Virus record (IMG/VR): IMGVR_UViG_3300025413_001239
From: a virus
Taxonomy: Duplodnaviria > Caudoviricetes
Length of the DNA: 64,000 nt
Direction: 5' to 3' (one strand)
In this document: positions 17,686-55,255 of the stretch, piece after piece
Position numbering within the stretch: position 1 is the stretch's first letter
Layout: each line of letters begins with the position of its first letter
Made by a program: the position numbers and the translations under genes
The notes under the pieces: generated by a model
What the model saw: only the letters and a program-made list of their open reading frames with translations
The model's database searches: none
What the model was told of the DNA's origin: nothing

Positions 17686-17690
17686 TATAT

Positions 17691-18401
17691 ATGGGATTAC
17701 CAATAGTTACAAATGGATTAATATTATGTTTGGATGCTGGAAATATTAAGTCATATTCACAATCGGGTTCAACATGGTCTGATTTAAGTGGAAATGCTAA
17801 TAATACCACTCTTCTTAATTCACCAACATTTAGTAGTAATAATAGTGGATATTTTACATTTAATGGTACAAACCAATCAGCTAATAGTGTCAGTACAATA
17901 AACTTATCATCAACAAACGCAATTAGTATTTCTTTATGGTTTAAAGTTTCTGGAACTTCTTTATATGTTTTAAGTGAATTTGGTACAAATATAAATACAA
18001 ATGCAAATTCATTTCTTTTTGACATAAATGAAGTAGCTACTGGTAAAATTTCATTTGCTGATGTTCTTGGTGTTGGTTCATCATATAATCAAGTTCAAAC
18101 AGTTAATACATATAATGATAATAAGTGGCATAATGTGTGTCTTGTATCAAATAGAGCTTTAAATACTAGTAATCACAATTTTATTTATGTTGATGGAATT
18201 TTAGATACAGTTCAAGGTTCACTTAATAATGCCAATAATTCAAATTATGGTAATTATACTATGTATTTTTTTTCTAGGGCTAATACTAGTTATTTTATAA
18301 GTGGTAATTCATCTAATTACTTACTATATAATAGAGCATTAACACTACAAGAAATTGAACAGAATTATAACTCTTTAAAATCAAGATACGGATTAAATTA
18401 A
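17691..18401 (+). CDS. LamG/concanavalin A-like lectin domain protein (paralog 2)
   Basis: GLILCLDAGN...WHNVCLV...IYVDG...YNRALTLQEI. Confidence 0.85.
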   Translation: MGLPIVTNGLILCLDAGNIKSYSQSGSTWSDLSGNANNTTLLNSPTFSSNNSGYFTFNGTNQSANSVSTINLSSTNAISISLWFKVSGTSLYVLSEFGTNINTNANSFLFDINEVATGKISFADVLGVGSSYNQVQTVNTYNDNKWHNVCLVSNRALNTSNHNFIYVDGILDTVQGSLNNANNSNYGNYTMYFFSRANTSYFISGNSSNYLLYNRALTLQEIEQNYNSLKSRYGLN

Positions 18402-18408
18402 TTAGAAT

Positions 18409-19092
18409 ATGGCTTCATCAATATTTAACCCATCAATAGTAATAAATGGTTTAGTGTTACTTTTAGACTCAGGAAATGTAATATCATATCCACAAACTGG
18501 TTCAACTTGGACTGATTTGAGTGGAAATGGTAATAGTGGTACTTTATTTAATTCACCAACTTTTACATCTGGTTATTTTACTTTTAATGGGTCAAATCAA
18601 TATGTTTCTTTTGGTAAGCAATTAATTAGTAATTTAAGTAGTTCAACTGTAAGTATTTGGGTAAAAGTTTCTAGTGGTGGGGCAATGTATTGTGAGAGAG
18701 ATTCAAGTGGTAATGACATATTTAAGATTGATAATGGTAGTTCTTTTGATGGTTACACAATAGGTTTTGTACAGCGTAATGACGCAGGTAATTTAACACA
18801 AGTAAAAACTAGCACTTCAATAAGAAGTGGAAATTGGACAAATATATGTGTTACAAACAATTGTAATGCAATTACAATATATCTCAATGGAGTATTATCT
18901 ACAACAGGTAGTATTACAAATAGTACGTTAACAAATAGTGGTATTGATGCTAGATTAGGTGCTGATAAGGGAGATGGTACACAATATTATAGTGGTAATA
19001 TTTCATCATGTTTATTATATAATAGAGCATTAACAGCACAAGAAACACAACAAAATTATAACGCATTAAAGGGAAGATTTGGTTTAAGTTAA
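18409..19092 (+). CDS. LamG/concanavalin A-like lectin domain protein (paralog 3)
   Basis: GLVLLLDSGN...WTNICVT...IYLNG...YNRALTAQET. Confidence 0.85.
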   Translation: MASSIFNPSIVINGLVLLLDSGNVISYPQTGSTWTDLSGNGNSGTLFNSPTFTSGYFTFNGSNQYVSFGKQLISNLSSSTVSIWVKVSSGGAMYCERDSSGNDIFKIDNGSSFDGYTIGFVQRNDAGNLTQVKTSTSIRSGNWTNICVTNNCNAITIYLNGVLSTTGSITNSTLTNSGIDARLGADKGDGTQYYSGNISSCLLYNRALTAQETQQNYNALKGRFGLS

Positions 19093-22868: not shown

Positions 22869-25112
22869 ATGAGAATAACTGGAGATACAATACTAGCTTC
22901 TTCATACGAAGTACAAAAATCAACACCATTAGATACTAGACAATGGGTTCAAAATTTATCAGATTTAACTGGTGTGACATTTGGTTCATATTATAGTGGT
23001 ATGACCGTTTCAGTTTATGGTGATACAGCATCAACAGCTAATAATGGTGTATATTATTTTAATGGCCAAAATCAAACTAGTTTAAGTAGTTGGGTTAAAT
23101 TAATTGATACAACCGTAATTGGAAATTACTTGACACTATCTGGTGGAACTGTAAGTGGTAATACTGTATTTTTAAGTGGTCTTACCGCAACAACAATATC
23201 CGCTACAACATATCAGAATCTACCAGCAACACCATACTTGAATTTATCTGGTGGAACTGTTACTGGTGCAACGAAATTTACTAGTGGACTTACAGCAAAT
23301 ACAATATCCGCTACAACATATCAGAATCTACCAGCAACACCATACTTACCTCTATCTGGTGGAACTGTTACTGGTAATACCGTATTTACTAGTGGACTTA
23401 CCGCAACTACGTTAAACGTGGGTCAAATATTTAGTGTTAATAGTAATGGTAATGTTGGGTTTGGTACTAACATTTCAGGTGGTACAACTAATGGAATGTG
23501 GTATGATGCTACAAATAAAGCATTAAATATTAATAACCAAACACCTCAAAGTACATATAATTTAGAGGTTAATGGTACAATTAGAAGTAATAATGGTATT
23601 TTTCTTGGTCAATACTCAGCTCCAAGCTTAAGTGCAACAACTGGTACATCGGGTACATTAACAGCTGGTACTTATTATTATATTGTCACAACTGTAGATA
23701 ACTATGGTAATTCGACAAATGGTAGTAATGAGGTATCAGCAACATTACCAATTGGTACCACAAATGGTAGTATTTATTTAACTTGGAATCTTATCTCAGG
23801 GGCTTCATCATATAATCTTTATAGGTCTACTGGTGGTACAAAAAATGAAAACCAATACATTAATGTATCATCATCAATAGGTGCATCAAGTGTTCCAACA
23901 ACTGTCTCATATACTGATAAAAACTACACTGGTTATACAAATGGTACTGTTCCAGCATTTAATGCATCGGCTCAAATAGCCATACAACCAAGTGCTGGTA
24001 GAACAATTACATCTGGTGGTGCATTATTTGTTGGTGATGGAAACAATTATTTAAGTGATGTGGTATTAACATTAAATCCATCATTTAGTGTTGCTGGTCC
24101 TTCGTCATCTGGTTCGACACCTAGTAATAGACTTATAGTTAAGGGTTTAAGTTGGAACTCAACATATGGTGCTACACCAAGCGTTGGTTTTTTACAAATG
24201 AACAATGTTTTAAATAATAACAACCCAACGATTGATAAGCTTTCATTTAGTGTTGGTTCGGCTACTCAATCAAATTATAATGGTTCAACACTTAATGGTG
24301 TTGAGAGATTCAACATACAGACTGACGGTTCATTTAACCATTATCTTTCAAATAAATTTAATGTATCCCAATCATTGACTGGAAATGGAAACATAAATTT
24401 ATATAGTGGTTCAACAACTGTTTATGGGAATGTAACTAACTTTTTAACCCAATTTAATATAGGTGATACGTTTACTGCTGGAACTAATGTTTATACTGTA
24501 ACAGCTATTACCAGTGATTCACAATTAAGTATAAGTCCAGCATTTTCTGGAACTTTGACATCTAACCAAATAACTATTCTATTATATAGTGGTGCTTCTT
24601 CTGGTGTTACATATTATGGGGATGTTAGTAAATGGGCGTTTGCACCTAATACACAAATTACAATAAGTGGTTCGGTATATACTGTGATATCATCTGCCGC
24701 TGGTACATTTTATTTAGGTACAAACTTTACTGGTACAACTAGTGCTTATACATATACAACATATAATACTTATAATACACCATATTATTTAAATGGTGGT
24801 ACTAAATTTAATGTTAACGCTAATGGTCAAACAACTATTAATGGTAAATTAAGTATTCTTTCTGGTGTTACTGGAAGTAGTGCTTCTGTGGGTACTGCTA
24901 AATTTACTTCTGGTGTTGTGACTTTAACTAATACATGTATAACATCAAATTCTAAAGTGTTCTTAACCGTTACCGCACCTTCTGGTAATATTGGTATACC
25001 AACAAGAAGTGGTACAACAACCAATTCTATGCAAATTGTTAGTTTATCAGCTGGTACAACAGCCGTTCAAACTGGTGATAATAGTACATTTGATTATTGG
25101 ATTATAAATTAA
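22869..25112 (+). CDS. Putative tail fibre protein
   Basis: PLDTRQWV N-terminus; shares the 36-aa repeat with 11571-16970; GTYYYIVTTVDNYG beta-rich domain. Confidence 0.7.
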   Translation: MRITGDTILASSYEVQKSTPLDTRQWVQNLSDLTGVTFGSYYSGMTVSVYGDTASTANNGVYYFNGQNQTSLSSWVKLIDTTVIGNYLTLSGGTVSGNTVFLSGLTATTISATTYQNLPATPYLNLSGGTVTGATKFTSGLTANTISATTYQNLPATPYLPLSGGTVTGNTVFTSGLTATTLNVGQIFSVNSNGNVGFGTNISGGTTNGMWYDATNKALNINNQTPQSTYNLEVNGTIRSNNGIFLGQYSAPSLSATTGTSGTLTAGTYYYIVTTVDNYGNSTNGSNEVSATLPIGTTNGSIYLTWNLISGASSYNLYRSTGGTKNENQYINVSSSIGASSVPTTVSYTDKNYTGYTNGTVPAFNASAQIAIQPSAGRTITSGGALFVGDGNNYLSDVVLTLNPSFSVAGPSSSGSTPSNRLIVKGLSWNSTYGATPSVGFLQMNNVLNNNNPTIDKLSFSVGSATQSNYNGSTLNGVERFNIQTDGSFNHYLSNKFNVSQSLTGNGNINLYSGSTTVYGNVTNFLTQFNIGDTFTAGTNVYTVTAITSDSQLSISPAFSGTLTSNQITILLYSGASSGVTYYGDVSKWAFAPNTQITISGSVYTVISSAAGTFYLGTNFTGTTSAYTYTTYNTYNTPYYLNGGTKFNVNANGQTTINGKLSILSGVTGSSASVGTAKFTSGVVTLTNTCITSNSKVFLTVTAPSGNIGIPTRSGTTTNSMQIVSLSAGTTAVQTGDNSTFDYWIIN

Positions 25113-40760: not shown

Positions 40761-43646
40761 ATGGCAACTAAAAATATAAATGCGGAAAAAATACAAGGTA
40801 ATTTATCAATTACTTCTGTATCAGCTACAACATATCAAAATTTACCTTTAGACATAAGGGTTACTGGTGGTACTTATTCAGCTGGTACAGCCACCTTTAC
40901 CAATAATACTGGTGGAACATTCACCGTTACTGGTTTTAGTACAAGTAATGCAACGCAGTTTACTGGTGGTACTGTTACTGGTGCGACCCAATTTACTAAT
41001 GGACTTTCGGCTAATACTATATCAGCAACAACATATTATAATCTACCTTTAGACATAAGGGTTACTGGTGGTACTTATTCAGCTGGTACAGCAACTTTCA
41101 CAAATAATACTGGTGGTACATTTACCGTTACTGGGCTTACAACACCATTTAATGGTGGGGTAGTATCTGGTGCGACTCAATTTACTGGTGGCCTAACAGC
41201 TAATACAATAACAAAATCTGGTGGTACAGCAACACAAATTCTTGTGGCTAATGGTGGTGTTATAAGTGGTGGTACTGGTATAAATATATCCGCTGGTACA
41301 ATATCTGTTACGGGTGTAACTTCTGTTATTGTTCAAGACACTGGTACTGGTAGTACTGTAAGATGTGGTAATAATAACTTAGCTAGTGGTCTTTGTTCTG
41401 GTGCTCTTGCTGGTACTTATAACTGTGCAACAAATGCTAATTCTTTTGTTGGTGGTGGTACACATAATGTTGCTAGTGGTACGGCAAGTGCTGTAAATGG
41501 TGGTATCTCTAATACATCATCTAATCAGTATTCAACAATAGGTGGTGGTAATACTAATTCGTCATCAGGTTACGCATCAACAGTAGGTGGTGGTCATACC
41601 AATTCATCATCAGGTTATGCATCAACAGTAAGTGGTGGTTATGGTAATGCATCTGTTGCTTATTATTCAACAGTAGGTGGTGGGTTAAGTAATACCGCTT
41701 CTGGTTATTGTTCATTTATTGGTGGTGGTACTTATAATAGTAGTAAGTGTTTTAATTCAGCACTAATTGGTGGACAAAATAATTCATCATCGGGTTATTT
41801 TTCAACAGTTGGTGGTGGTAGATTTGTTAAGGCAATAAATGCTTATTCAACAGTTGTTGGTGGGTTAAGTAATTCGGCTTACTGTAATTATTCATTTATA
41901 GGTGGTGGTAGACACAATAAAATAAGAAAAGATATAAATGGTACTGTATCTTCACCTCTTTGCGGTAGCGGTGCTAGTGTTATTGCTGGTGGTCAAGGTA
42001 ACGCTTTAGTCGGTTATAATAATTTTATTGGGGGTGGTGTGATGAATACTATAGGTTGTGGATTACAAACTTATAATATTATTAGTAATTGTAATAATTC
42101 AATTTGTGTTCAAGGAAATCAACCACAATTAAATGAACATTATGTTGAATATTATAATAACAGTGATTGTTTAGTATATGGTGGACGTATAATATATTCA
42201 TCGTATTATGGAGGTTATTCAATTTTTTCAACAACTTTTTATGCGGGAAACAATGCTGGTGGTAATAAATTATATGATTTAACTTCATTAACTAATACCA
42301 ATAAATGTTATCATCATTCAATAATTGTTGGTGGTAAAATGAATACAATTTCTGGTAAATATAGTCCGAGTTCATTCATTGGTGGTGGATATAGAAATAC
42401 CGCTTCTGGTTATTGTTCAATAGTTGTTGGTGGTGGTTATAATTGTTCAAATGGTTCGGGTTCATTTATTGGTGGTGGTGGTGGTAATAGTATAAGTGGT
42501 ACGTATAATTGTCAATCGTCAATAGTTGGTGGCCGTAATAATAGTGTTTCTAGTAGTTCTAGTGGGTTTTCATTCATTGGTGGTGGGACTTGTAATTCAA
42601 TAAGTGGTTATGATTCTGCTAATTCATTCATTGGTGGTGGTGCTTTTAATAGTATTTCTGGTTGGTACGCCTATTGGTCTACAATTAGTGGTGGTTATGG
42701 TAATCAGATTACTGGATATAATTCATGTTATTCAACGATAAGTGGTGGTAGGAATAATAGTATTTCTGGATATAATTCAGGTTGGTCAACGATAAGTGGT
42801 GGTAGATTTAATACAATTTCTGGTTGTTATACTCTTTATTCAACAATAGGTGGTGGTCATGGTAATCAGATTACTGGTACAAATTCACAGTATTCAACAA
42901 TAAGTGGTGGATATAATAATTATATTAATGGAACAAATTCACAGTATTCAACAATAGGTGGTGGTGTTGGTAATCAAATTTCTGGACAATATTCATATTA
43001 TTCAACAATAGGTGGTGGTCATGGTAATCAGATTACTGGTACAAATTCATGTTATTCAACAATATCTGGTGGTAGGGTAAATTACATTTCTGGAACTAAT
43101 TCATGTTATTCAACAATAGGTGGTGGTTACGATAATCAGATTTCTGGAGATAATTCATACCTCTCAACAATAGGTGGTGGTATAATTAATACAATTTCTG
43201 GTTGTTATACTCTTTATTCAACGATAAGTGGTGGTTATAATAATCAGATTACTGGAACTAATTCACGATATTCAACAATAAGTGGTGGGATACATAATTA
43301 TATTAATGGTATAAATTCATTGGGTTCAACGATAAATGGAGGTGTAGGTAATTGTATATGTGGTACATACTCACAATATTCTACAATAGCTGGTGGTTAT
43401 AGTAATTGTATTTCTGGGCAATATTCATTTGCTGCTGGATATGGTAATACAGTATCAGGTAGTTACTCAGCAGCTATAGGATTTGGGTTAAATGCAACTA
43501 GTTGGTGCACTTTATATATAAATAATTTAGTATCACCAACAATACAAACTAAAAATTATACAAATGACACAACAGCCGCTACTGGTGGAATACCAGTAGG
43601 TGGGGTATATCATACCGCAGGTGTATTAAAAATAAGATTAACATAA
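40761..43646 (+). CDS. Fibre/adhesin with STIGGG.N repeats (YadA-head-like solenoid)
   Basis: Dozens of 15- and 18-aa S-T-I-G-G-G-x-x-N units; shares the 67-aa module at its N-terminus. Confidence 0.7.
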   Translation: MATKNINAEKIQGNLSITSVSATTYQNLPLDIRVTGGTYSAGTATFTNNTGGTFTVTGFSTSNATQFTGGTVTGATQFTNGLSANTISATTYYNLPLDIRVTGGTYSAGTATFTNNTGGTFTVTGLTTPFNGGVVSGATQFTGGLTANTITKSGGTATQILVANGGVISGGTGINISAGTISVTGVTSVIVQDTGTGSTVRCGNNNLASGLCSGALAGTYNCATNANSFVGGGTHNVASGTASAVNGGISNTSSNQYSTIGGGNTNSSSGYASTVGGGHTNSSSGYASTVSGGYGNASVAYYSTVGGGLSNTASGYCSFIGGGTYNSSKCFNSALIGGQNNSSSGYFSTVGGGRFVKAINAYSTVVGGLSNSAYCNYSFIGGGRHNKIRKDINGTVSSPLCGSGASVIAGGQGNALVGYNNFIGGGVMNTIGCGLQTYNIISNCNNSICVQGNQPQLNEHYVEYYNNSDCLVYGGRIIYSSYYGGYSIFSTTFYAGNNAGGNKLYDLTSLTNTNKCYHHSIIVGGKMNTISGKYSPSSFIGGGYRNTASGYCSIVVGGGYNCSNGSGSFIGGGGGNSISGTYNCQSSIVGGRNNSVSSSSSGFSFIGGGTCNSISGYDSANSFIGGGAFNSISGWYAYWSTISGGYGNQITGYNSCYSTISGGRNNSISGYNSGWSTISGGRFNTISGCYTLYSTIGGGHGNQITGTNSQYSTISGGYNNYINGTNSQYSTIGGGVGNQISGQYSYYSTIGGGHGNQITGTNSCYSTISGGRVNYISGTNSCYSTIGGGYDNQISGDNSYLSTIGGGIINTISGCYTLYSTISGGYNNQITGTNSRYSTISGGIHNYINGINSLGSTINGGVGNCICGTYSQYSTIAGGYSNCISGQYSFAAGYGNTVSGSYSAAIGFGLNATSWCTLYINNLVSPTIQTKNYTNDTTAATGGIPVGGVYHTAGVLKIRLT

Positions 43647-43700
43647 TAAATGTGTTTAATAACATATTTATAATAATAAAAATAAAAAAAAATAAAAAAA

Positions 43701-44039
43701 ATGATTTACGCTAAAATTAATCCAGTTGCTACAAAGGTAGAACAAATTACACCATTTTCAAGTACGACAATAACAGCAGATACAATAACTGCAATTGCTC
43801 GTCCATATATTTTAGGTTCAGATAAAACTAGATTTGAAGTTAAATATGGTAACGTAACTTTAGATGAAAATAACATTGTAATTAAATTTAATAATATATT
43901 ATCAAGTGAATCAATATTAACTTCTGAACAATTATCTACTTGGGGTTCTGATGATTCAGTAGTACTTAATATTATTGCAACAAGTTTAGGAACATCAGTT
44001 ACAGAAATTTTAAGTGGTGCCACTAGAAATATGTTCTAA
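43701..44039 (+). CDS. Hypothetical protein
   Basis: 112-aa ORF; LSTWGSDDSVV resembles WGHDDTII in 19096-19371. Confidence 0.6.
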   Translation: MIYAKINPVATKVEQITPFSSTTITADTITAIARPYILGSDKTRFEVKYGNVTLDENNIVIKFNNILSSESILTSEQLSTWGSDDSVVLNIIATSLGTSVTEILSGATRNMF

Positions 44040-44043
44040 AGTA

Positions 44044-44072
44044 TTGACAAATAGGATTTATATTCATAAATT
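44044..44072 (+). promoter_or_regulatory. Sigma70-like promoter for the glycan/sulfation cassette
   Basis: TTGACA-N17-TAAATT immediately before ATG 44079. Confidence 0.5.
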
Positions 44073-44078
44073 TACCCT

Positions 44079-44954
44079 ATGAATATAATTTTTCAAATTA
44101 ATGGTGGTATGGGTAAGTGTATCATGGCCACCGCAGTATGTGAAGCTATAAAAAAACAATACCCAGATGATACTTTAATTGTAGTATCTGGCTACCCAGA
44201 CGTGTTTTTAAATAACCCAAATATTGATAGAACATACGCATTTAATGGGTTTTCTTATTTCTATGAAGATTACATAGAAAATAAAAAATTTAAAGTTTTA
44301 GCTCACGACCCGTACTTAGAAACAACTCATTTGTTACAAAATGAACACCTTATTATTACATGGTGTAATATGTTTGGTATTACTTATAATGGTGAACAAC
44401 CTAAAATTTATCTTAGTGATAGAGAGAAGAAGTTTTACGGGAATAAGTATGTTTTTGAAAAACCAATCTTATTACTACAAACAAATGGTGGTGCAAGTAC
44501 TGATATGAAATATTCTTGGGCTAGGGATATTCCAGTTGTAGTTGCAGCCTCAGTAATTGATGAATTTAAAGATGCTTATACAATTTTACACATAAGAAGA
44601 GATGACCAATTCATCTTAGAAAACACAATACCAGTTACAGATAATTTTAGGGCATTGGCAGTATTAATTAGTATTAGTAGAAAAAGATTATTCTTAGATA
44701 GCTTCGCACAACATACAGCAGCTGCTTTAAATATGAATTCAACCGTTTGTTGGATTGCTAATAAGCCAGAAGTATTCGGTTATGAATTACACGATAATAT
44801 CATAGCAAATCATTTTACCGTTAAACCAGAACTTAAGGGTTCATATTTACAAAAATTTAATATTAGTGGCGATTTATTAGAATTTCCTTTTAATAGTGAA
44901 AAGGAAATCTTTAATATCGAACAAATAATTAATTCAATTAAAAAGCAAAAGTAA
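44079..44954 (+). CDS. GT9-like (heptosyltransferase-fold) glycosyltransferase
   Basis: NGGMGKCIMATAVCEAIKKQYP and FLDSFAQHTAAAL. Confidence 0.7.
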   Translation: MNIIFQINGGMGKCIMATAVCEAIKKQYPDDTLIVVSGYPDVFLNNPNIDRTYAFNGFSYFYEDYIENKKFKVLAHDPYLETTHLLQNEHLIITWCNMFGITYNGEQPKIYLSDREKKFYGNKYVFEKPILLLQTNGGASTDMKYSWARDIPVVVAASVIDEFKDAYTILHIRRDDQFILENTIPVTDNFRALAVLISISRKRLFLDSFAQHTAAALNMNSTVCWIANKPEVFGYELHDNIIANHFTVKPELKGSYLQKFNISGDLLEFPFNSEKEIFNIEQIINSIKKQK

Positions 44955-45863
44955 TTGCAAAACCCTTTTAAAAATATAAAATCATATACCAAACCCAAAA
45001 GTAACAATATTGCGGTATGTTCTGTTTTTTTTAATGCTGGTAATTTTACTAAAACAATAATGAATAATCTATATGTGGATAATCTTCTTAAAAAAAGTGA
45101 AATACCTCATTATATGATTGAATTAATTTATCCAAATCAAAAACCAACATTTATTGAAAGTGAATTTGTATTTCACGTTAAATCTAATTCATACATGTTT
45201 CATAAAGAAAATTTATTTAACATTTTAGTAAATAATTTACCTAAGCACATAAACAAGATTGTTTGTTTGGATGGTGATGTTATTTTTGAGAATAAAGATT
45301 GGATAAATGATGTTGATAGCGAATTAGATAAATATGATGTTGTAGTACCGTATCATGATGGTTGTAATTTAGACCCTTATTTTGATAAGGTCTTATTTCA
45401 TGCTAAAACGCTTTTAGATATTAGATATGATACTGATGATGGTCCATTTTGTTCTGGTTATGCAATAGCATTCAGACGTAGTTTTTTTGAAACTATAGGT
45501 ATGTATGAATATGCTATTTTCGGTGGTGGGGATAAGATGAACTTAGTTAATTATATAAGACGACCAATAATGATTAATTCATTTAATTCAACAAAAAAAG
45601 ATGATTATATTCAAAAACTAAAGTCCTTAAATTTAACATATTCTTATTTAGGTGGTATAGTCTATCATTTATATCATGGTAACGCTTTAGATAGAAAGTA
45701 TTTAGATAGACATGTACTTTTACAAGGTTTACAATTAGACACTGAAATTACAAAAAATGCTGATGGTGTTTTAGAATTTGTAAACCCACAGAAATATAAT
45801 AAAATAATGTATGATTATTTCATTGGAAGAAATGAAGATTATATAGACCCAAATTTACTTTAA
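44955..45863 (+). CDS. GT-A fold glycosyltransferase (GT2/GT7-like)
   Basis: DxD motif CLDGDVIF, FGGGD and VYHLYHG. Confidence 0.65.
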   Translation: MQNPFKNIKSYTKPKSNNIAVCSVFFNAGNFTKTIMNNLYVDNLLKKSEIPHYMIELIYPNQKPTFIESEFVFHVKSNSYMFHKENLFNILVNNLPKHINKIVCLDGDVIFENKDWINDVDSELDKYDVVVPYHDGCNLDPYFDKVLFHAKTLLDIRYDTDDGPFCSGYAIAFRRSFFETIGMYEYAIFGGGDKMNLVNYIRRPIMINSFNSTKKDDYIQKLKSLNLTYSYLGGIVYHLYHGNALDRKYLDRHVLLQGLQLDTEITKNADGVLEFVNPQKYNKIMYDYFIGRNEDYIDPNLL

Positions 45864-45864
45864 T

Positions 45865-46683
45865 ATGATAGAACAAATATTTTATCAGAGTTCAATGCCT
45901 CGTGCGGGTTCAACTCTATTACAAAACATTTTAGCACAAAATCCAGATATATACGCGACACCAACATCTGGTGTTCTTGAATTAATTTTTGCTGCTAGAG
46001 GTAATTACACCTCATCACCTGAGTTTAAAGCACAAGACCCTGAATTGATGAAATCAGGATTCCTTAACTTTTGTAAAGAAGGTATGTATGGATTTTATAA
46101 TGGGATTACGGATAAAAAGTATGTTATCGATAAGAGTAGAGGGTGGGGAATTCATTATGATTTTTTAAACCTTATACATGGTAACCCAAAGATTATATGT
46201 ATGGTTAGGGACCCTAGGGATATATTTACATCAATGGAAAAAAACTTTAGAAAAGCTAGTGATAAAGCAAGTCCGTTGGTTGATTGGAGTAAAATGCAAG
46301 GAACAACGACACCTAAGCGTATTGATATGTGGGTTCAAAATCCACCAGTTGGTATGGCATTTGAACGTTTAGGTGAAATGATTAGAATGGGTATTGATAG
46401 TAAAATTCATTTTGTAAGATTTGAAGACTTGTGTCTTTATCCAGAACAAACTCTAGGTAAGATATATGCTTATTTAGATATTCCATATTTTAAACATGAT
46501 TTTGATAATATCGAACAAATAACAAAAGAAGATGATGAAGTTTATGGTGTGTATGGTGACCATACTATCAGAACAACACTTGAACCAGTTACATCTAAAG
46601 CTAAGGAAATTCTAGGTAAGGATGTTTGTGATTGGATAATGAATAATTATAAATGGTATAACGATAAATTTAGATACAAATGA
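45865..46683 (+). CDS. PAPS-dependent sulfotransferase
   Basis: 5'-PSB motif SMPRAGSTLL; 3'-PB motif CMVRDPRDIFTS. Confidence 0.9.
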   Translation: MIEQIFYQSSMPRAGSTLLQNILAQNPDIYATPTSGVLELIFAARGNYTSSPEFKAQDPELMKSGFLNFCKEGMYGFYNGITDKKYVIDKSRGWGIHYDFLNLIHGNPKIICMVRDPRDIFTSMEKNFRKASDKASPLVDWSKMQGTTTPKRIDMWVQNPPVGMAFERLGEMIRMGIDSKIHFVRFEDLCLYPEQTLGKIYAYLDIPYFKHDFDNIEQITKEDDEVYGVYGDHTIRTTLEPVTSKAKEILGKDVCDWIMNNYKWYNDKFRYK

Positions 46684-47108
46684 TAATTTGGTTAACTGGC
46701 CAGCCAAGTTCTGGTAAAACAACAATAGGAAAGGAGTTATTAAAAAGAAAAGAATTTAGTAACGCATTTTTAATTGATGGTGATAAATTAAGGGAATTAT
46801 TCAATAATCAAGACTATTCTGAAAAAGGTAGAAGAGAAAATATTGAATTAGCTCAGAATTTAGCTTACTACATTAATGATAATTTTAAAACGGTTATCGT
46901 TGCAATGGTATCCCCATACAGGGACCAAAGAGAACGTTTTAAGGAAAAAATGGGTGAAGATATTAAAGAATATTATATACATACAAGTGAAATTAGAGGT
47001 AGGGAAAACTTCCATGTAAGTGATTATGAACCACCATTATTTAATTTTATAGATATCGATACAACAGCAAAAACACCTGAAGAGTCATCAAAATTAATAT
47101 CAATTTAA
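46680..47108 (+). CDS. cysC: Adenylylsulfate (APS) kinase
   Basis: IWLTGQPSSGKTT, IDGDKLR, RRENI, VSPY and YEPP. Confidence 0.9.
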   Translation: MIIWLTGQPSSGKTTIGKELLKRKEFSNAFLIDGDKLRELFNNQDYSEKGRRENIELAQNLAYYINDNFKTVIVAMVSPYRDQRERFKEKMGEDIKEYYIHTSEIRGRENFHVSDYEPPLFNFIDIDTTAKTPEESSKLISI

Positions 47109-47157
47109 AGATATTTTAAACATTTCTAAGAATAACTTATTTTTCTGTTTTTTTTGA

Positions 47158-47165
47158 ATATTTAT
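47158..47165 (+). promoter_or_regulatory. ATATTTAT putative late-promoter motif before the sheath gene
   Basis: Same 8-mer precedes about 18 genes in the window. Confidence 0.55.
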
Positions 47166-47197
47166 TAATAACAATAATTAAATTAAAAAAAAACAAT

Positions 47198-50100
47198 ATG
47201 GCAAATCAAGTATTCGTTAGTCCAGGTGTTTACACTTCAGAATTAGACCTAACATATGTAACCCGTCAAGTAGGTGTTACAACATTAGGGTTGGTCGGTG
47301 AAACAACAAAAGGACCAGCTTTTCAACCAATTTTCATTAGTGATTATGGTGGCTTCCAAACATTTTTTGGGGGGTTAGATAATACATTAGTAAATGGACC
47401 AGATGGTAATGGTGCTCCATTGTATGAGTTACCATACATTGCAAAATCTTACTTATCTCAATCAAATCAGTTATTCGTAACAAGGATATTGGGTCTTTCT
47501 GGATACCATGCTGGTTTAGCTTGGGGTATCACGCTTAGTGCGGCATTAGACCCGACAACAACTGGTACATCATATGTTTCAACTTATACAGCAAATTATA
47601 CAGTTACTACTGGTGATACTCTTTATAGTATCCAAACAACTGATAGTAATTTAAATGCTTATTATCAACAAAACCCATCAGCATTTAGCTTTTTGGCTGG
47701 TGCAACTACTGGGCAAAGCTATACAATATACATACCACAAGTTAAAAATGGTCTTATATTTAGTGGTGGTTATATTACATTTAATATTATTTCTGCCAGT
47801 GTTACACCATTTATTACTGCTGGTACAGTAACAAATATTTACCCAAATTCTGGTTCATCAACTTTATTAACTTATAAACTTACAACAGGTGGTACTCTTA
47901 CTTCAATTGTATCTACTGATTCATTTGTTAATCAAGTTTATACCGCAACACCTAGTTATTTTAATTTATTTATTACAGCAGCAACTGGTACAGCACAAAA
48001 TATACTAATACCACAAACATCAGATGGTACAACATTCTATGGTGGTAATATTAATTCAAAAGTTCTTTCAACTGGTTATACAGATGCATCAATACCTGTT
48101 TCAGCAAGTTCACCAACTAATTTTACATATACTGCGTCATCAAATAGTAATGTTCTTTATGGTATAACATCTACTGATTCATTTGTTAATCAAATTTATG
48201 CTGCTAGTGCAAGTAGTTTTAATTTCTTAACTGGTGCTACAATTGGTACACAACAAATTTTAACTGAACCAACATTATTATATGGTGGTAATAACTATAG
48301 TGGTGGTTATATAACAATTAATGTTGCTACAACTGGTTACTCTAGTAGCATATTAACTGGTAATTCTATATCACAATTTTTTGGTACATATTCAGCAAGT
48401 ACTGGAAATACACTTTATTCAACAACAGCAACTGCTGGTGGTGGTGCTAACGCATATAATCAATATTATCAACAAAATCCATCAGCATTTACCTTTATAG
48501 CTAGTGGTGTTAGTCAAACAATACAAACCCCAAATGTTTATAACGGTATTCTTTATAGTTACAATACATTAGCTATTACACCATATGCAACTGGTTATAC
48601 AAATGGTGGTAATATAACAGCTGTTGGTAATGCAAATATATACCCAGATACTAGTGGTAATGCTCTATTCTCATATACAGCTTCAACCACAGCAAATACA
48701 CTTAGTAGTTTTGTATCAACGGATGCAATAACAAATCAAATTTATGCTGCTAGTGCAAGTAACTTTAACTTCTTAACTGGTGCTACATTAAATTCAACTG
48801 GTTCTTTAGCTACAGCTTATGCTCCAAACGGAATTAATTTTAATTATAGTGGTATTAATTATAATATTAATGTATTAAATTATACAACACCAGTAACAAG
48901 TGCTATAACTTCTGGATATACCGCTGTATATTCAGCTAGTACTAATGGTATACTTTATTCTACATATAGTCTTAATAATTCAATATATAACTTAGTTTAC
49001 GCTGCTAATCCAGTTCCTTTTTACTTCTTAGCAACAGCTAATACTGGTGCAACAAGTAATATTGCTATAACACGCACACAAATTGGTGCTTACTTTAGTG
49101 GTGGTAATGTAAGTGTAAATGTACTTTCAACTGGTTTTACAAGTCCATCTAGTGTAAATACAGCTGGAACAGTTGGTGTTGGAAGTAATTACATAACAAA
49201 TTTAAATGGTGTTGTATCTTCTTACGCATTGACTAATGTATATGGTAACCCAAATTATGTTACTTATTTTAGTGGTTCAGTATCACCTTCAGCGTTTACT
49301 TTCTTAAATACTGCTAGTACTGGTACTATAACTGGTCCAACATCAAATAACGGTGCTTACTTTACTGGTGGTAGTATTGCAGTAAGTGTACTTTCAACAG
49401 GTTATACAAACCCATCTAGTTTAACAGCATCTACTTCAGTATTTAATGGTACATTCTCTGCAACAACTGGTGGTACACTTAATACAACAAGTGCAACTGG
49501 TGGTGCTGGTTCAGGTTTATATAACTCAGCTTATGCGGCTACACCAAGTGCATTTAACTTCTTAGCAACTGGTGGTACTTATTCAGTTGTAAATGCGCCA
49601 TCATCGTCTAACGGTGCTAATTTTACTAGTGCAAATACTGTAACAATAGTTGCTTTTGCAACTGGTTATACAAACCCATCTAGTGCAACAACAGCAACTA
49701 CACAGTTTACTGGTGTATACTCAGCAAGTACTGGTAATACTCTTTATTCAACAAGTGCAGTTGGTGCTGGTTCAGGTTTATATAACTCAACTTATGCAAC
49801 TACACCAAGTGCGTTTAACTTCTTAACTGGTGGTACAGGTGGAATTGTAACAATAGGTCAATCATCAAATGGTATTAACTATAGTAGTGGTACACTTAAT
49901 TTAAGTGTTCTTTCAACTGGTTATACAAACCCATCAAGTGGTACAACTGTTAGTACATCAGCTTATACAGCAACGTTCTCGGCTAATTCAAGTAATTTAC
50001 TTTACACAACTAGTGGTTCAACACCATTGTATAATAGTACATATAGTGTAAATCCTAATATATTTAACGTAATATCTTCAACAGCTACAGGTACAACAGT

Positions 50101-53100
50101 TAACTTAGCAACAACTTACACACCAAATGGTATTAATTATAGTGGTGCAAATATTAGCGCATATATAGTTTCGACTGGTTATACAAGTCCATCTAGTGCA
50201 ACTACAATTAGTTCATTTACTGGTACTTACGCAGTTAATTTAGGAAACCACACAATTATTAGTACACCAACATTTAGTACACCAATTGCTAATCAAATAT
50301 ATTCAACATACTCAGCTAGTAGCTTTGGTTTTATATATTCAGCAAATAACAATTCTAGTTATGTTGTAAATGTACCTCAAACACAAGTTGGTGCGGTTGC
50401 TACTAGTGGAAATATGTTAACAACAATTAATAGTATAACACCATCTGGTTCATTTACAAACCCATTATTTAATTATACTGGTAATACGTTTACGTATACG
50501 GCTAACTCAAGTAATGGTAATATTGTTGCTATAAATATTCCAGCGTCTAATTCTGGTACAACATTTTTCTACAATTATGGTCCTTACTATTTTAATGGTT
50601 TTGGTCTTTTATCTCCAGGTCAATCATTAACACTTAATTATAATATTGATTGGTTACAATATAGCCCTAACTATACTAGTTACATGGACATTTATATGCT
50701 TTCACAAAACTATGTGGTAACGCAAACTGGTACAACTGGTCAATATATTACAGGTACAACAAGTGGTTTCACTAATGGTTATGCGATTGCTTATAATAAC
50801 ATTACTGTTGGTGTTGGTGGGAATACGACTATAAATACTACATTATATAATATTACTGGTACAACAACTGGTTTAACTGTAAGTACTACAGGTTATTATC
50901 AATCTGTAACTGGTTCTACTAGTGGTTTAACAACAGTTAACTCTGGTATTTACCAATCAATTACTGGTTCAACAAGTGGTACAAGTAGAACTAATTCTGG
51001 TTCATATCAAAGTATTCAATATAATATGACTGGTACTAGTAGTGTTAACACTGGTATTTACCAATCAATTACTGGTTCAACAAGTGGTACAACTATAATT
51101 AGTGGTGGTGTTTATACTTTACTAATTGGTTCAACAAGTGGTACAAGTCAATCATACACTGGTAATTACCAATCAATTACTGGTTCTACAAGTGGTATTA
51201 CAACACAATATAGTGGTTATTATCAAAACTTAACTGGTACAACAAATAATGTCACATTAACATATAATGGTTTCTATAGTAGTATTACTGGTTCTACAAG
51301 TGGTAGTAGCTATACTTACTATGGTGATAATGCTGGTGATTTAACTGGTTTAACAACTGGTATAAGTTACGCTTATACTGGTAGTGGTTATTCGGATGTT
51401 GAAGGAAAGATAATAGCACTTTTACGTTCTAGGGCTACGGTTGACGTATCAACTCAATTACCAACATTCCAAATTGCTAATGTAACTGATATTAACTTTA
51501 GTTCAACTGCAACTGGTGCAACAAAAAATCCTTTAGGTATATTTAATTTGACTGGTACATCTGTAACGCAAGGTATATTTAATTATGAACTTTCATTTGA
51601 TGTTACTAAAAAAGATTACGTTCCTAGAGCATTAGGTAGAATGGCTTTTGATAAAAAGACATCAGTATTCGTTGAGGAATTTTACGGTAATGTATTTACT
51701 AATGACTTTAATGAAGGTAAAATTTATGGTATTAACCAAAGTTTAATTAATTACTCTTCACCAGGTGAATTTGGTCCATTTGATAACTATTTACAACAAT
51801 ATCAATCTGCTGTTACCCCATATGTGGTATCGGAAGTTAAGGGTAACCAAGTTATTAGATTATTTAGATTCTGGACAATATCAGATGGTAATATGGCTAA
51901 TATGGAAATTAAAGTTTCAATTGCTAATATTAGACCTGATACTCAAGAATTTGATGTACAAATTAGAGATTATAACGATACAGATGCTAGACCTAAAATC
52001 CTAGAAGCTTATAGTCGTTGTAATTTAGACCCAACTTCAAATAATTACATTGGTCAATTAATTGGTACATATGATGGTGCTTATGCGTCAAAATCTTCTT
52101 ACGTACTTGTTGAATTAGATGTGAACTCAGATACAACTGATGCTTTCCCAGCTGGTTTTGTTGGGTACCCAGTAAGAGATTACCAAACTAGTGGTAATGA
52201 TAGTGTATTAACACCAGATATTATGTATTATAAGGCTTACGGTACATATGATAACCCACGTAAATTCTATTTAGGTTTAAATGATACTGTTGGTATCGAT
52301 ACAGACTTCTTTGATTACAAAGGTTTACCAATAAAAGGTTTAGAATATAGCGAATGGACTGGACTTACACCAGGTTATCACATGGATATTAATGCTAGTG
52401 CGGTAACAATTGCTGATATTGCTGAATACATAAATGGTGGTTCTGGAGCGACTTATAACCCAATATTTAAATTTGATACTGGTGACGCACCATTCCAAAG
52501 TGAAGCTGGTGTTCAAGGTACGCCATACGCAAACTTATATGCTCGTAAATTTACACTTGTACCTTATGGTGGTTTCGATGGTTGGGACATTTATAGAACA
52601 AGAAGAACGAACTTGGACACTTACGATATTAAGGGTAAGGGTGGTCAAACTGGTTTAAGTTATGGAGCATTTTCTAAGTATCCTCTTCAAGATGGTTCAG
52701 AAGGTCTTACATCAGATTACTACGCATATTTAGAAGGTATTTGGACATTTATAAATCCTGAAGCTGTTAATATAAATGTGTTTGCAACACCAGGTATTGA
52801 TACTTTCGATAACCAATCATTGGTTAACCAAACTATTGAAATGGTTGAGAATAACAGAGCTGACTCATTGTACATAGTTACAACACCAGATTCTGATTCT
52901 ACTGGTACTCCATTGACGGTTTCAAATGTGGTTGATGAGCTTAATGGTAATTTTGATAGTAACTATACAGCAACGTATTGGCCTTGGGTTCAAATATTTG
53001 ATTCTGAAAACACAACATACATATATGTTCCACCAACAAGAGATGTTGTAAGAAATATCGCTTTAACTGATAACATTTCATTCCCATGGTTTGCTGTGGC

Positions 53101-53578
53101 TGGTGTTAACAGAGGTTCGGTAGATTGTATTAAAGCTAGAGTTAAATTAACGCAAACAGATAGGGATACACTTTATGAAAATAGAATTAATCCTATCGCA
53201 ACATTTGCTTCAAATGGTGTTAATATCTGGGGTAATAAAACACTTCAAGTTGCTGATACTTATCTTAATAGAATCAACATTAGAAGACTTTTATTACAAG
53301 CAAGAAAACTTATTTCTGCTGTTTCAATCAGATTGTTGTTCGAACAAAATGATGCTGTGGTTAGAAATCAATTCTTATCACTTGTTAACCCAATATTGGA
53401 TAACATTAGAAGCGAAAGAGGTCTTTCTGATTTTAGAGTTGTGTTAAATAATAGCCCAGAAGATTTTGATAATAATCAATTAACTGGTCAAATATTCCTT
53501 AAACCAACAACAGCGTTAGAATTCATTCAAATTCAATTTGTTATACTTCCATCAGGTGCATCATTTGATAACATTTAA
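47198..53578 (+). CDS. Contractile tail sheath protein with ~1275-aa repeat insertion
   Basis: FVSPGVYTSELD...GETTKGP N-terminus; YWPWVQ, PWFAVAG, LYENRINPI, WGNKTL and RINIRRL C-terminal motifs. Confidence 0.95.
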   Translation: MANQVFVSPGVYTSELDLTYVTRQVGVTTLGLVGETTKGPAFQPIFISDYGGFQTFFGGLDNTLVNGPDGNGAPLYELPYIAKSYLSQSNQLFVTRILGLSGYHAGLAWGITLSAALDPTTTGTSYVSTYTANYTVTTGDTLYSIQTTDSNLNAYYQQNPSAFSFLAGATTGQSYTIYIPQVKNGLIFSGGYITFNIISASVTPFITAGTVTNIYPNSGSSTLLTYKLTTGGTLTSIVSTDSFVNQVYTATPSYFNLFITAATGTAQNILIPQTSDGTTFYGGNINSKVLSTGYTDASIPVSASSPTNFTYTASSNSNVLYGITSTDSFVNQIYAASASSFNFLTGATIGTQQILTEPTLLYGGNNYSGGYITINVATTGYSSSILTGNSISQFFGTYSASTGNTLYSTTATAGGGANAYNQYYQQNPSAFTFIASGVSQTIQTPNVYNGILYSYNTLAITPYATGYTNGGNITAVGNANIYPDTSGNALFSYTASTTANTLSSFVSTDAITNQIYAASASNFNFLTGATLNSTGSLATAYAPNGINFNYSGINYNINVLNYTTPVTSAITSGYTAVYSASTNGILYSTYSLNNSIYNLVYAANPVPFYFLATANTGATSNIAITRTQIGAYFSGGNVSVNVLSTGFTSPSSVNTAGTVGVGSNYITNLNGVVSSYALTNVYGNPNYVTYFSGSVSPSAFTFLNTASTGTITGPTSNNGAYFTGGSIAVSVLSTGYTNPSSLTASTSVFNGTFSATTGGTLNTTSATGGAGSGLYNSAYAATPSAFNFLATGGTYSVVNAPSSSNGANFTSANTVTIVAFATGYTNPSSATTATTQFTGVYSASTGNTLYSTSAVGAGSGLYNSTYATTPSAFNFLTGGTGGIVTIGQSSNGINYSSGTLNLSVLSTGYTNPSSGTTVSTSAYTATFSANSSNLLYTTSGSTPLYNSTYSVNPNIFNVISSTATGTTVNLATTYTPNGINYSGANISAYIVSTGYTSPSSATTISSFTGTYAVNLGNHTIISTPTFSTPIANQIYSTYSASSFGFIYSANNNSSYVVNVPQTQVGAVATSGNMLTTINSITPSGSFTNPLFNYTGNTFTYTANSSNGNIVAINIPASNSGTTFFYNYGPYYFNGFGLLSPGQSLTLNYNIDWLQYSPNYTSYMDIYMLSQNYVVTQTGTTGQYITGTTSGFTNGYAIAYNNITVGVGGNTTINTTLYNITGTTTGLTVSTTGYYQSVTGSTSGLTTVNSGIYQSITGSTSGTSRTNSGSYQSIQYNMTGTSSVNTGIYQSITGSTSGTTIISGGVYTLLIGSTSGTSQSYTGNYQSITGSTSGITTQYSGYYQNLTGTTNNVTLTYNGFYSSITGSTSGSSYTYYGDNAGDLTGLTTGISYAYTGSGYSDVEGKIIALLRSRATVDVSTQLPTFQIANVTDINFSSTATGATKNPLGIFNLTGTSVTQGIFNYELSFDVTKKDYVPRALGRMAFDKKTSVFVEEFYGNVFTNDFNEGKIYGINQSLINYSSPGEFGPFDNYLQQYQSAVTPYVVSEVKGNQVIRLFRFWTISDGNMANMEIKVSIANIRPDTQEFDVQIRDYNDTDARPKILEAYSRCNLDPTSNNYIGQLIGTYDGAYASKSSYVLVELDVNSDTTDAFPAGFVGYPVRDYQTSGNDSVLTPDIMYYKAYGTYDNPRKFYLGLNDTVGIDTDFFDYKGLPIKGLEYSEWTGLTPGYHMDINASAVTIADIAEYINGGSGATYNPIFKFDTGDAPFQSEAGVQGTPYANLYARKFTLVPYGGFDGWDIYRTRRTNLDTYDIKGKGGQTGLSYGAFSKYPLQDGSEGLTSDYYAYLEGIWTFINPEAVNINVFATPGIDTFDNQSLVNQTIEMVENNRADSLYIVTTPDSDSTGTPLTVSNVVDELNGNFDSNYTATYWPWVQIFDSENTTYIYVPPTRDVVRNIALTDNISFPWFAVAGVNRGSVDCIKARVKLTQTDRDTLYENRINPIATFASNGVNIWGNKTLQVADTYLNRINIRRLLLQARKLISAVSIRLLFEQNDAVVRNQFLSLVNPILDNIRSERGLSDFRVVLNNSPEDFDNNQLTGQIFLKPTTALEFIQIQFVILPSGASFDNI
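47560..51390 (+). repeat. Sheath insertion: 12 x ~87-aa units then 12 x ~18-aa strands
   Basis: Units with a (P/A)SxFxF core ending S/ATGYT; strands of consensus GxYQSITGSTSG. Confidence 0.85.
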
Positions 53579-53698: not shown

Positions 53699-55255
53699 AT
53701 GAAAATAAAGTTAAATTGTATAAACTGTAATAATGATTTTGAAACGGAGTTTAAATATAGAAGTAAGAAGTTTTGTGGTAGGAAGTGTTTTTTTGAATAT
53801 TCTAAAGAGCATAAAACTATTGGTAGAAAAATAGATGAAGAAATAAGGGAAAAAAGAATTTGTTTAATTTGTAATAAAGAATTTGAGTGTAAGAAAAAAC
53901 AAGAAAATAAAATGTGTTCTAATGAGTGTAGAAAAGAATGGAACTCTATAGAAGAAAATAAGTCTAATAGAATAAAATTAAGTAAAGATACATTATTAAT
54001 AAATCATGGTGTTGATTCAATGTTTAAGAAAATTGAATATAAAGCTAACCGTAATCAAATTTTCTTAGATAAAATAGGTGTTATAAATCCGATGAAAGAT
54101 AAGTTAATTGTAAATAAACTACAAAAAACTCTGAATGAAAAACAAATTAAAAACTTACTACCAAAACTTAATGAACATAATATAATATTACTTGATGAAT
54201 ACAGTGTAAATAAAAGTGGTTCAACATCAATGTCTTATAATTTTAAATGTAAAAAGTGTGAAAATATATTTTCAAGTACCGTGCTTGGTTCTGGTAAGAT
54301 ACCAATTTGTAGAAAATGTACACCGTTAGAAAAAAATTCAAAAATTGAAGAAGTAATAAAGGATTTTTTAAATTTAAAAAATATTAAACACTTAGATAAC
54401 AGTAGAAAAATACTTAACGGTAAAGAGATTGATATATTCTTGAGCGATTTTAATTTAGGTATAGAGGTAGACGGCAATTATTTTCATAGTGAAATAAGTG
54501 GTGAAAAAGATAGTAAATATCATTTAAGTAAAACAAAATTAGCACATGAAAAAAATATAAAATTAATACACATATTTGAAGACGAAATACTATATAAAAA
54601 AGACATAGTATTATCTAGATTGAGTAATCAGTTAAATTTAAATAATATAAGATACTTTGCAAGAAATTGTGAAATTAGAATTGTAAGTAAAAAAGAATCT
54701 ACTTTATTTTTAGATAATAATCATATTCAAGGAAATTCTATTGATTTAATAAGATTAGGGTTATATTATAATAATATATTAATTTCATTAATGACATTTG
54801 GTAAAGAGCGAAAAGCTTTAGGTAATATAGAAACTGAGGATACTTATGAATTGGTTAGATTTTGTAATTTAATAAATTCTAATGTTGTTGGTGGGTTTTC
54901 TAAACTTTTAAAACATTTTATTGTAACATATAAACCTAAAAAAATTGTAACTTACGCTGATATTAGATGGTCTGGATTAAATGAATTAGATACTGTTTAT
55001 ATAAAAAATGGTTTTAAGTATATTAAAAATACATCACCAAATTATTGGTACTTAAAAGTTGGACAATATAATCATAGATATCATAGATATAATTTTAGAA
55101 AAGATATTCTAGTTAAAGAAGGTTTTGATAAAAACATGTCTGAATTTGAGATTATGAAATTAAAGGAATTTGATAGAATATGGGACTGTGGAAATATGAA
55201 ATTTGAATGGACTAGAAATTCAATTTGTAATCATGAACTCAGGTGCATCATTTGA
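53699..55255 (+). mobile_element. Hef-like homing endonuclease: zinc ribbons, Vsr/EDxHD-like nuclease, GNAT(Mom)-like C-terminus
   Basis: CxxC...FCGRKC; EIDIFLSDFNLGIEVDGNYFH; YELVRFC...GGFSKLLKHF...IVTYAD. Confidence 0.75.

Follow-up and report, generated by a model that had tools for sequence, protein, structure and literature searches.

In rhizobia (NodH/NoeE with NodP/NodQ) and in Xanthomonas (RaxST with RaxP/RaxQ), dedicated sulfotransferases are accompanied by their own enzymes for the supply of 3'-phosphoadenosine 5'-phosphosulfate (PAPS), and mycobacteriophages encode cytoplasmic glycosyltransferases that decorate the phages' own structural proteins, including the capsid and the C-termini of the tail tube. 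We know of no report of sulfation in mycobacteriophage virion glycosylation. Here we analysed a 64,000-nucleotide stretch (hereafter the window) of an uncultured, large, T4-like, aquatic phage (IMG/VR record IMGVR_UViG_3300025413_001239; Duplodnaviria, Caudoviricetes), in which a cassette at positions 44044-47108 carries genes for a GT9-like glycosyltransferase, a GT-A glycosyltransferase, a PAPS-dependent sulfotransferase and an adenylyl-sulfate kinase between fibre genes and the tail sheath gene. A search of cultured phages with the nucleotide sequence of the window gave no match. We propose that the cassette is a phage-encoded module that acts in the host cytoplasm to decorate the adjacent tail fibre with a sulfated glycan, a chain of steps to which, taken whole, we assign a probability of roughly 0.45.

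For the glycosylation step, the closest described systems are the bacterial autotransporter heptosyltransferases (BAHTs) TibC and Aah, which act on the adhesins TibA and AIDA-I and of which none, to our knowledge, is coupled to a sulfotransferase. Like these enzymes, the GT9-like protein of the cassette has a cytoplasmic GT9 fold (VIA Z score of 19.9, with 255 residues aligned to TibC residues 97-387), and its gene adjoins that of a long Ser-rich repeat protein of the beta-helix type, the kind of protein that BAHTs hyper-heptosylate (PMC4358343). This adjacency to a repeat protein extends across the family, to 25 of 28 groups of related loci and to the tail fibre of Pelagibacter phage HTVC112P, and in some relatives ADP-heptose genes stand beside the GT9-like homologue, in line with the BAHT donor. 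The phage protein differs in lacking the N-terminal beta-barrel of TibC (residues 1-97), such that residue 1 of its model aligns with TibC residue 97, as well as the inserted beta-hairpin thumb and the Cys4 iron finger (C339, C342, C358 and C370; PMC4358343); it is also shorter (291 aa versus 406 aa) and carries Lys at the position of TibC Asp110. The lipopolysaccharide (LPS) heptosyltransferases WaaC and WaaF (2h1h, 1psw, 3tov) are its best structural matches (Z 20-23), with the motifs of the C-terminal lobe falling in register in statistically weak alignments. Unlike them, it gives no significant match to a sequence model, has Lys13 in place of Asp13 and is encoded in the context of a phage fibre rather than an LPS-core operon.

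As in the Nod-factor and Rax systems, a dedicated sulfotransferase is encoded together with PAPS supply, such that sulfation of the product would be independent of assimilatory flux. In contrast to those systems, the window encodes the adenosine 5'-phosphosulfate (APS) kinase step only, the kinase has a lid about 18 residues short, and the 128-aa HxGH protein that relatives add is not a canonical ATP sulfurylase. Unlike in mycobacteriophages, the protein proposed to be decorated is a fibre, and the pathway includes a sulfation branch. By analogy, the cassette is thus a combination of known kinds, namely adhesin heptosylation with dedicated PAPS supply and sulfotransfer, and our literature search retrieved no paper describing phage sulfotransferases beside fibres or sulfated virions. 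Phage-borne APS kinase genes (cysC) have themselves been described by Chen and Banfield, who reported 62 in large freshwater phages, found them transcribed in situ and read them as part of assimilatory sulfate reduction (PMC10914622). Those auxiliary metabolic genes (AMGs) probably belong to the same family as the kinase of the cassette, being short adenylyl-sulfate kinases on large freshwater phages. Unlike in the published reading (PMC10914622), the kinase is here tied by gene order to a sulfotransferase and glycosyltransferases beside fibres.

Enzymes of the cassette

The four genes lie on the forward strand and are tightly packed. The gene for the GT9-fold, GT-B transferase-like protein (ORF1; 44079-44954, 291 aa) is followed at 0 nt by that of the GT-A fold glycosyltransferase (ORF2; 44955-45863, 302 aa, TTG start); 1 nt separates the latter from the sulfotransferase gene (ORF3; 45865-46683, 272 aa), which shares a 4-nt ATGA overlap with the gene for the short-lid APS kinase (ORF4; 46680-47108, 142 aa). 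Hydrophobic segments are absent from all four proteins and the GC content of their genes (0.26-0.33) is that of the surrounding phage DNA (about 30% across the window), indicating that the proteins are soluble or cytoplasmic and have long been resident in the phage. The first-pass annotation, made from the sequence of the window, had described four coupled genes of these identities located between fibre genes and the sheath. All of this was borne out: the sulfotransferase and kinase by Pfam, the GT9-like and GT-A proteins by folded models, the coupling by the co-directional reading frames with junctions of 0, 1 and -4 nt, and the location by a repeat fibre upstream and a 2126-aa protein ending in sheath domains downstream.

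The sulfotransferase was recognised by Pfam models Sulfotransfer_3 (E = 3e-19; 70.6 bits, cut-off 27) and Sulfotransfer_1 (E = 3e-13; 50.4 bits, cut-off 22) and additionally matched phrog_27463 (E = 1.7e-39). Both PAPS-binding motifs are present in the protein and in the consensus of its family, the 5'-phosphosulfate-binding motif as PRAGST (residues 12-17) and the 3'-phosphate-binding motif as RDPRD..S (residues 114-122). A profile search of the PDB with the family placed TPST1 first (E = 8.5e-9, residues 4-208), followed by the OLS/CurM-type sulfotransferase (E = 1e-8), and the best NCBIfam match was the carbohydrate sulfotransferase NoeE (E = 3.5e-7, below cut-off). The GEET segment that holds the catalytic Glu of TPST aligns to TPTS in the phage protein, in which a conserved Glu, E38, occurs five residues onward.

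The kinase matched Pfam APS_kinase (E = 1.9e-17; 64.1 bits against a cut-off of 21.1) over model positions 4-109 of 152, with positions 110-152 unmatched, and all of its 21 PDB matches are APS kinases. NCBIfam adenylyl-sulfate kinase models were also matched (E = 6e-19 and 9e-18), below their equivalog cut-offs (64.6 versus 138.7). The P-loop (GQPSSGKTT), IDGD and VSPY motifs are all kept. The lid is about 18 residues short, with residues 100-103 of the query spanning residues 108-129 of the 7yq0 chain, and an RGRE motif that is conserved in 55 distinct phage homologues fills the lid position. The identical kinase sequence is encoded on a viral contig of 343 kb. The earlier reasoning that this kinase makes PAPS for the sulfotransferase, from APS supplied elsewhere, holds up, as does the observation that the window carries no ATP sulfurylase: neither Sat nor CysD/N was detected in the 34 open reading frames (ORFs) of the window scanned with Pfam, a scan that did not extend to its three largest ORFs or its final 4 kb. 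No PF01747 was found in five related records (up to 145 kb), and cysH, cysD/N and sat were found neither in these records nor in the scanned ORFs of the window. Two genes that accompany the kinase in relatives, encoding an HxGH nucleotidyltransferase and a DUF2061 protein, have no counterpart in the window. As the window lacks these extras and yielded no sulfurylase, APS and any heptose donor would have to come from the host.

The identities of the two glycosyltransferases came from structure prediction alone, after sequence searches gave nothing. For the GT9-like protein, no Pfam family was matched and PF01075 was absent at E ≤ 0.1; TIGR02201 gave E = 0.008 and 15 bits, short of its cut-off of 170; sequence and profile searches of the PDB returned no match; and hhalign comparisons of the family with E. 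coli WaaC and WaaF gave probabilities below 3% and served for motif register only. The predicted structure (predicted local distance difference test, pLDDT, 89.5) has the two Rossmann lobes of a GT-B fold. The top Foldseek matches are all GT9 enzymes (3tov at 3e-14 and WaaF, 1psw, at 4e-11, then WaaC and TibC, down to 2e-7), and VIA Z scores were 23.3-19.3 against the same GT9 structures (3tov, WaaF, WaaC, TibC) compared to about 11 for the next GT-B families. In TibC the catalytic residue is Asp110, the counterpart of the Asp after strand 1 (WaaC Asp13) that is the proposed catalytic base (PMC4358343). The phage protein reads GGMGK13 where the same strand-loop-helix reads SSMGD13 in WaaC and SWVGD13 in WaaF, and this Lys is shared by no fewer than 90% of 42 members of the family and by gp49 of HTVC112P. 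Further along, K144-YSW and D207-SFAQH212 fall in register with DK192HW and D261-TGLSH of WaaC in alignments that are statistically weak, and D207 and H212 are invariant in the family. The four cysteines (residues 14, 21, 96 and 224) are scattered, none lying in a C-terminal insertion. From the model, the protein is best described as a GT9-fold offshoot that is neither a BAHT member nor a typical LPS heptosyltransferase, and it is probably a heptosyltransferase.

The second glycosyltransferase has a confidently predicted GT-A fold (pLDDT 93.4; Foldseek E values of about 2e-7), with matches among PDB entries and Swiss-Prot models to WrtF, heparosan synthase, B4GalT, SpsA and Rv2957. Its DxD motif is LDGD (residues 105-108), and across 52 sequences neither D106 nor D108 varies. 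The match to Pfam GT2 stayed under the cut-off (E = 0.02) and sequence and profile searches of the PDB gave none; the family counts 2812 representatives at E ≤ 1e-3.

Gene order in related phages

The cassette is real, conserved and widespread. With the sulfotransferase as query, viral contigs yielded at least 116 relatives, from which 80 loci were kept (61-88% identity); all their ORFs were called and clustered, and dereplication at 90% sulfotransferase identity left 34 groups. In the core arrangement, a repeat fibre is followed by a small ORF, the GT9-like gene, the sulfotransferase and the APS kinase. In 26 of 31 groups, the GT9-like gene immediately preceded the sulfotransferase, with gaps of mostly -1 to 7 nt; the kinase lay immediately 3' of the sulfotransferase in 22 of 34, with a further six carrying the kinase within five genes (28/34 in total). 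Of the 28 informative groups, 25 had a fibre homologue upstream of the GT9-like gene at a distance of at most three genes. Synteny across related phages had been put forward alongside the first-pass annotation as a check on its linking of the cassette to virion genes, and the location of the cassette indeed tracks the fibre gene. Adjacency to the fibre persists through an inversion (loci L054, L062 and L063), and fibres occur on both flanks of the cassette in L029, L036, L041 and L043. In most related loci, the sequence identity of the adjacent sheath is no higher than 35-40%, which indicates that the clade is deep.

Outside this clade, Pelagibacter phage HTVC112P encodes a 24%-identical homologue of the GT9-like protein (gp49), with the GGxGK and DS..H motifs, and its gene and that of the annotated tail fibre overlap at the latter's stop codon; HTVC112P is an independent lineage with a GT9-like gene directly behind a tail fibre. 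A scan of bacterial genomes with the GT9-like family recovered three contigs from metagenome-assembled genomes, all of them phage-like fragments with the same gene order, such that there appear to be no cellular homologues and no clue to the host.

Around this core, the related loci carry a variable set of genes. The GT-A gene was present at its cassette position in 2 of 34 groups, one of them the window's own, and is therefore a lineage-specific, variable insert. Behind the kinase, a 128-aa NMNAT-like HxGH nucleotidyltransferase was found in 21 of 34 groups (for example, L062:5755-6141) and a 70-aa DUF2061 membrane protein in 18 of 34 (L070:9404-9625 being an example of an HxGH/DUF2061 locus). 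The HxGH protein is a candidate miniature ATP sulfurylase. A complete-looking ADP-heptose set stood beside the cassette in 5 of 34 groups (L007, L010, L015, L033 and L074; for example, L010:9296-10854), located between the kinase and HxGH genes and comprising a heptose-7-phosphate kinase (8e-40), a heptose-1-phosphate adenylyltransferase (2e-25), these two being homologues of rfaE domains I and II, an ADP-heptose 6-epimerase (3e-52), a cupin and an HAD phosphatase. Other inserts included Sulfotransfer_4, GT25, GT4, FkbM methyltransferase, GNAT and fatty-acid-hydroxylase-like proteins. Variable glycan-tailoring genes such as these are the signature of a glycan-building island, in which heptose is likely the first sugar, and the sequence pattern of the cassette is that of such an island, unlike that of sulfur assimilation.

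A second, very divergent sulfotransferase (about 20% identical, 264-266 aa) was observed in tandem, immediately behind the first, in L026, L033, L038-L044, L064, L070 and L071, whilst L004 and L013 add a Sulfotransfer_4 protein, bringing the number of sulfotransferases to as many as three per cassette.

A proposed sulfated glycan on the fibre and its alternatives

The candidate acceptor is the repeat-rich fibre protein encoded upstream of the cassette on the same strand (40761-43646, 961 aa), which matched no Pfam or PHROG family. Its translation, examined by lag-18 autocorrelation, is almost devoid of charged residues and includes some sixteen repeats of 18 aa with the pattern GxxNxISGxxSxYSTISG. 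Ser accounts for 18% of residues 541-900, Thr for 9%, Tyr for 10%, Gly for 23% and Asn for 11%, and neither Lys nor Glu occurs there (0 of each). By analogy, these repeats are comparable with the beta-helical repeats heptosylated by TibC and Aah (PMC4358343), making them a plausible acceptor. The N-terminus of the fibre consists of two copies of a 37-aa module, followed by 15-aa and then very regular 18-aa repeats, in which Ser, Thr and Tyr positions are fixed and Cys positions scattered.

In the mechanism that we propose, the position of the genes points to the fibre as target. The 18-residue, Ser/Thr-rich repeats of the fibre (961 aa) would receive a sugar from the GT9-like enzyme, most probably heptose with host ADP-heptose as the donor, and in this phage the inserted GT-A enzyme would add a second sugar. 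The sulfotransferase would then O-sulfate the glycan with PAPS, the supply of which the kinase would raise by phosphorylating host-made APS; reliance on the host for APS is expected because this phage lineage is without the candidate adenylyltransferase found in many relatives. The outcome would be a negatively charged coat of sulfated glycan on an otherwise almost charge-free fibre.

Several observations weigh against this proposal. Lys13 replaces the catalytic Asp (WaaC Asp13, TibC Asp110) throughout the GT9-like family, and the enzyme may consequently rely on a different base or act on a different type of acceptor, or may fall outside the conventional inverting transferases. It also has neither the beta-barrel nor the iron finger of TibC and, by VIA, resembles LPS heptosyltransferases at least as well. 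Heptose-pathway genes were not found in the window, which makes the donor a guess, and the lid of the kinase, whose activity is predicted, is truncated. Homologues of the sulfotransferase in the cultured cyanophages S-SKS1, S-SRM01 and S-SCSM1 (26-29% identity) do not have fibre genes beside them. The synteny is drawn from one broad phage clade and thus partly reflects shared ancestry. The function is here inferred from gene position, and the modification itself is predicted.

The similarity to LPS heptosyltransferases is also an argument for a different target, the host envelope. Under this alternative, the GT9-like enzyme and the sulfotransferase would alter the LPS core or another surface glycan of the host during infection, which could prevent superinfection or keep progeny from adhering to cell debris. 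The structural scores of 3tov, WaaF and WaaC (Z 23-20) lie slightly above that of TibC (19.9), the BAHT-specific modules are missing, and the sigma-70-like promoter candidate in front of the cassette (described below) could allow early expression. We nevertheless regard envelope remodelling as unlikely, given that the cassette sits within a structural block, by the fibre in most groups and in the unrelated Pelagibacter phage, that the catalytic Asp of LPS heptosyltransferases is replaced, that all four proteins are soluble and without a membrane anchor, and that neither a flippase nor a ligase is encoded nearby.

A second alternative retains the fibre as acceptor and instead has the sulfotransferase act directly on its Tyr (or Ser/Thr) residues, like TPST and RaxST, with the glycosyltransferases acting separately. 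TPST1 is the best solved match of the sulfotransferase-family profile (8.5e-9), about 10% of the fibre repeats is Tyr in a fixed YSTI context, and in the raxST system of Xanthomonas a TPST-like enzyme likewise comes with dedicated genes for PAPS synthesis. Against this reading, the solved structures of Sulfotransfer_3 are mainly those of TPST and CurM-type enzymes, and the catalytic Glu of the TPST GEET segment aligns to Pro/Thr in the phage protein, for which the best NCBIfam match is the carbohydrate sulfotransferase NoeE. In most relatives, moreover, start-stop coupling joins the sulfotransferase to the GT9-like gene, and it is found together with sugar-tailoring enzymes, with up to three sulfotransferases per locus. 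The first-pass annotation had offered either a sulfated glycan or Tyr/Ser sulfation. The almost constant translational coupling to the GT9-like gene and the glycan-tailoring neighbours favour the glycan, and direct sulfation of the protein retains a small chance, one that we judge to be rather low.

It is very improbable that the kinase acts as a sulfur-assimilation AMG that boosts assimilatory sulfate reduction in the host next to unrelated neighbours. Although large freshwater phages often carry cysC, with transcription in situ, and it has been interpreted in this way (PMC10914622), the kinase gene overlaps the stop codon of the sulfotransferase by 4 nt and lies behind that gene in 28 of 34 groups, PAPS is the co-substrate of the sulfotransferase, and cysH, cysD/N and sat were not found in the scanned ORFs of the window or in the five related records. 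The cassette is at the same time placed in the tail module. The glycosylation of a modified DNA base by the GT-B and GT-A enzymes, or the building of a sulfated metabolite, can largely be set aside: T4-like phages do use GT-B enzymes on DNA (the T4 alpha- and beta-glucosyltransferases), and the presence of Lys instead of Asp may point to an atypical acceptor, but DNA glucosyltransferases are absent from the top structural matches, the cassette is not among nucleotide-metabolism genes and sulfated DNA bases are unknown.

If a sulfated glycan on the fibre is the correct reading, it would provide the first example of a sulfated virion among phages; we are aware of no phage virion that carries sulfate. 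Fibres bearing sulfated sugars would affect adsorption, host range, stability and contact with sulfated polysaccharides in water, and, since the cassette is abundant (1792 GT9-like homologues, 1268 short-form kinase homologues of about 145 aa and at least 116 viral contigs), the effect would be ecological in scale. The reading of phage cysC would likewise shift from nutrient metabolism to virion chemistry, correcting the published interpretation (PMC10914622). The enzymology would be unusual in two respects, a GT9 fold with Lys for the catalytic Asp and an APS kinase without most of its lid. A fuller version, in which uncultured aquatic phages of a large group common around the globe coat their fibres with a sulfated heptose O-glycan, built by a GT9 offshoot without the canonical Asp and supplied with PAPS by the short-lid kinase and, in relatives, by the 128-aa HxGH protein acting as a miniature sulfurylase, is doubtful as a whole.

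Transcription, sheath and the wider window

The first-pass annotation had given the cassette its own promoter, which remains a candidate. A sigma-70-like candidate, TTGACA-17-TAAATT (44044-44072, forward strand), ends 6 nt before the first start codon and is the best hexamer match within the 4 kb from 43400 to 47400. Such matches show no enrichment, with 23 found against 28.7 expected in shuffled sequence, and the candidate is conserved only in the two closest relatives, L005 and L076. Among 54 distinct upstream regions, the -35 hexamer is perfect in 1 and within one mismatch in 6. The candidate was thus rejected as a general feature of the cassette on the basis of conservation, and a separate cassette promoter in this phage is plausible from the sequence. 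No terminator was detected on either side of the cassette, which shares the orientation of the flanking structural genes, making read-through transcription equally possible. The window contains 38 copies of the T4-type late motif TATAAATA where 24 would be expected, only a mild enrichment, and none of them lies directly upstream of the cassette. Many relatives instead carry, within the 75 nt upstream of the GT9-like gene, the element (A/G)TTGGT.., about 17 nt, TA(A/T)ATT and then TAAGTTATG, which ends a few bases before the start codon. This TAAGTTATG-containing element could be a clade-specific promoter giving rise to an almost leaderless mRNA.

Between the fibre and the cassette lies a small conserved ORF (43701-44039, forward strand, 112 aa) with no family match; most related loci have a homologue or an alternative ORF of 107-125 aa (cluster c8) in this slot, and its product is possibly a fibre tip or assembly factor. 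A LamG baseplate-wedge-like protein is also encoded upstream of the cassette, together with the fibre. The downstream boundary is formed by a giant tail sheath (47198-53578, forward strand, 2126 aa), in which sheath domains occupy residues 1839-2116 only and the N-terminal 1840 aa are nearly charge-free and rich in Ser (12%), Thr (15%) and Tyr (8%). Sheaths are about 1055 aa in the closest relatives and about 590 aa in most others, and the cassette is kept. The sheath was ruled out as a conserved target of modification, given that relatives with ordinary sheaths retain the cassette. Of the link to virion genes drawn in the first-pass annotation, the part concerning the repeat fibre is therefore upheld by conserved gene order, whilst the part concerning the sheath is not.

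Elsewhere in the window, a second fibre/baseplate block (16972-19092 and 22869-25112) encodes two more proteins of the LamG (concanavalin-like) type, along with one of 747 aa that has a K1-capsule-lyase C-terminal domain at its end, which suggests a capsule-degrading tail spike. Mobile elements include a 518-aa HNH homing-endonuclease gene directly behind the sheath gene (53699-55255), a GIY-YIG element (1830-2855) and a LAGLIDADG element (inside 4391-6505).

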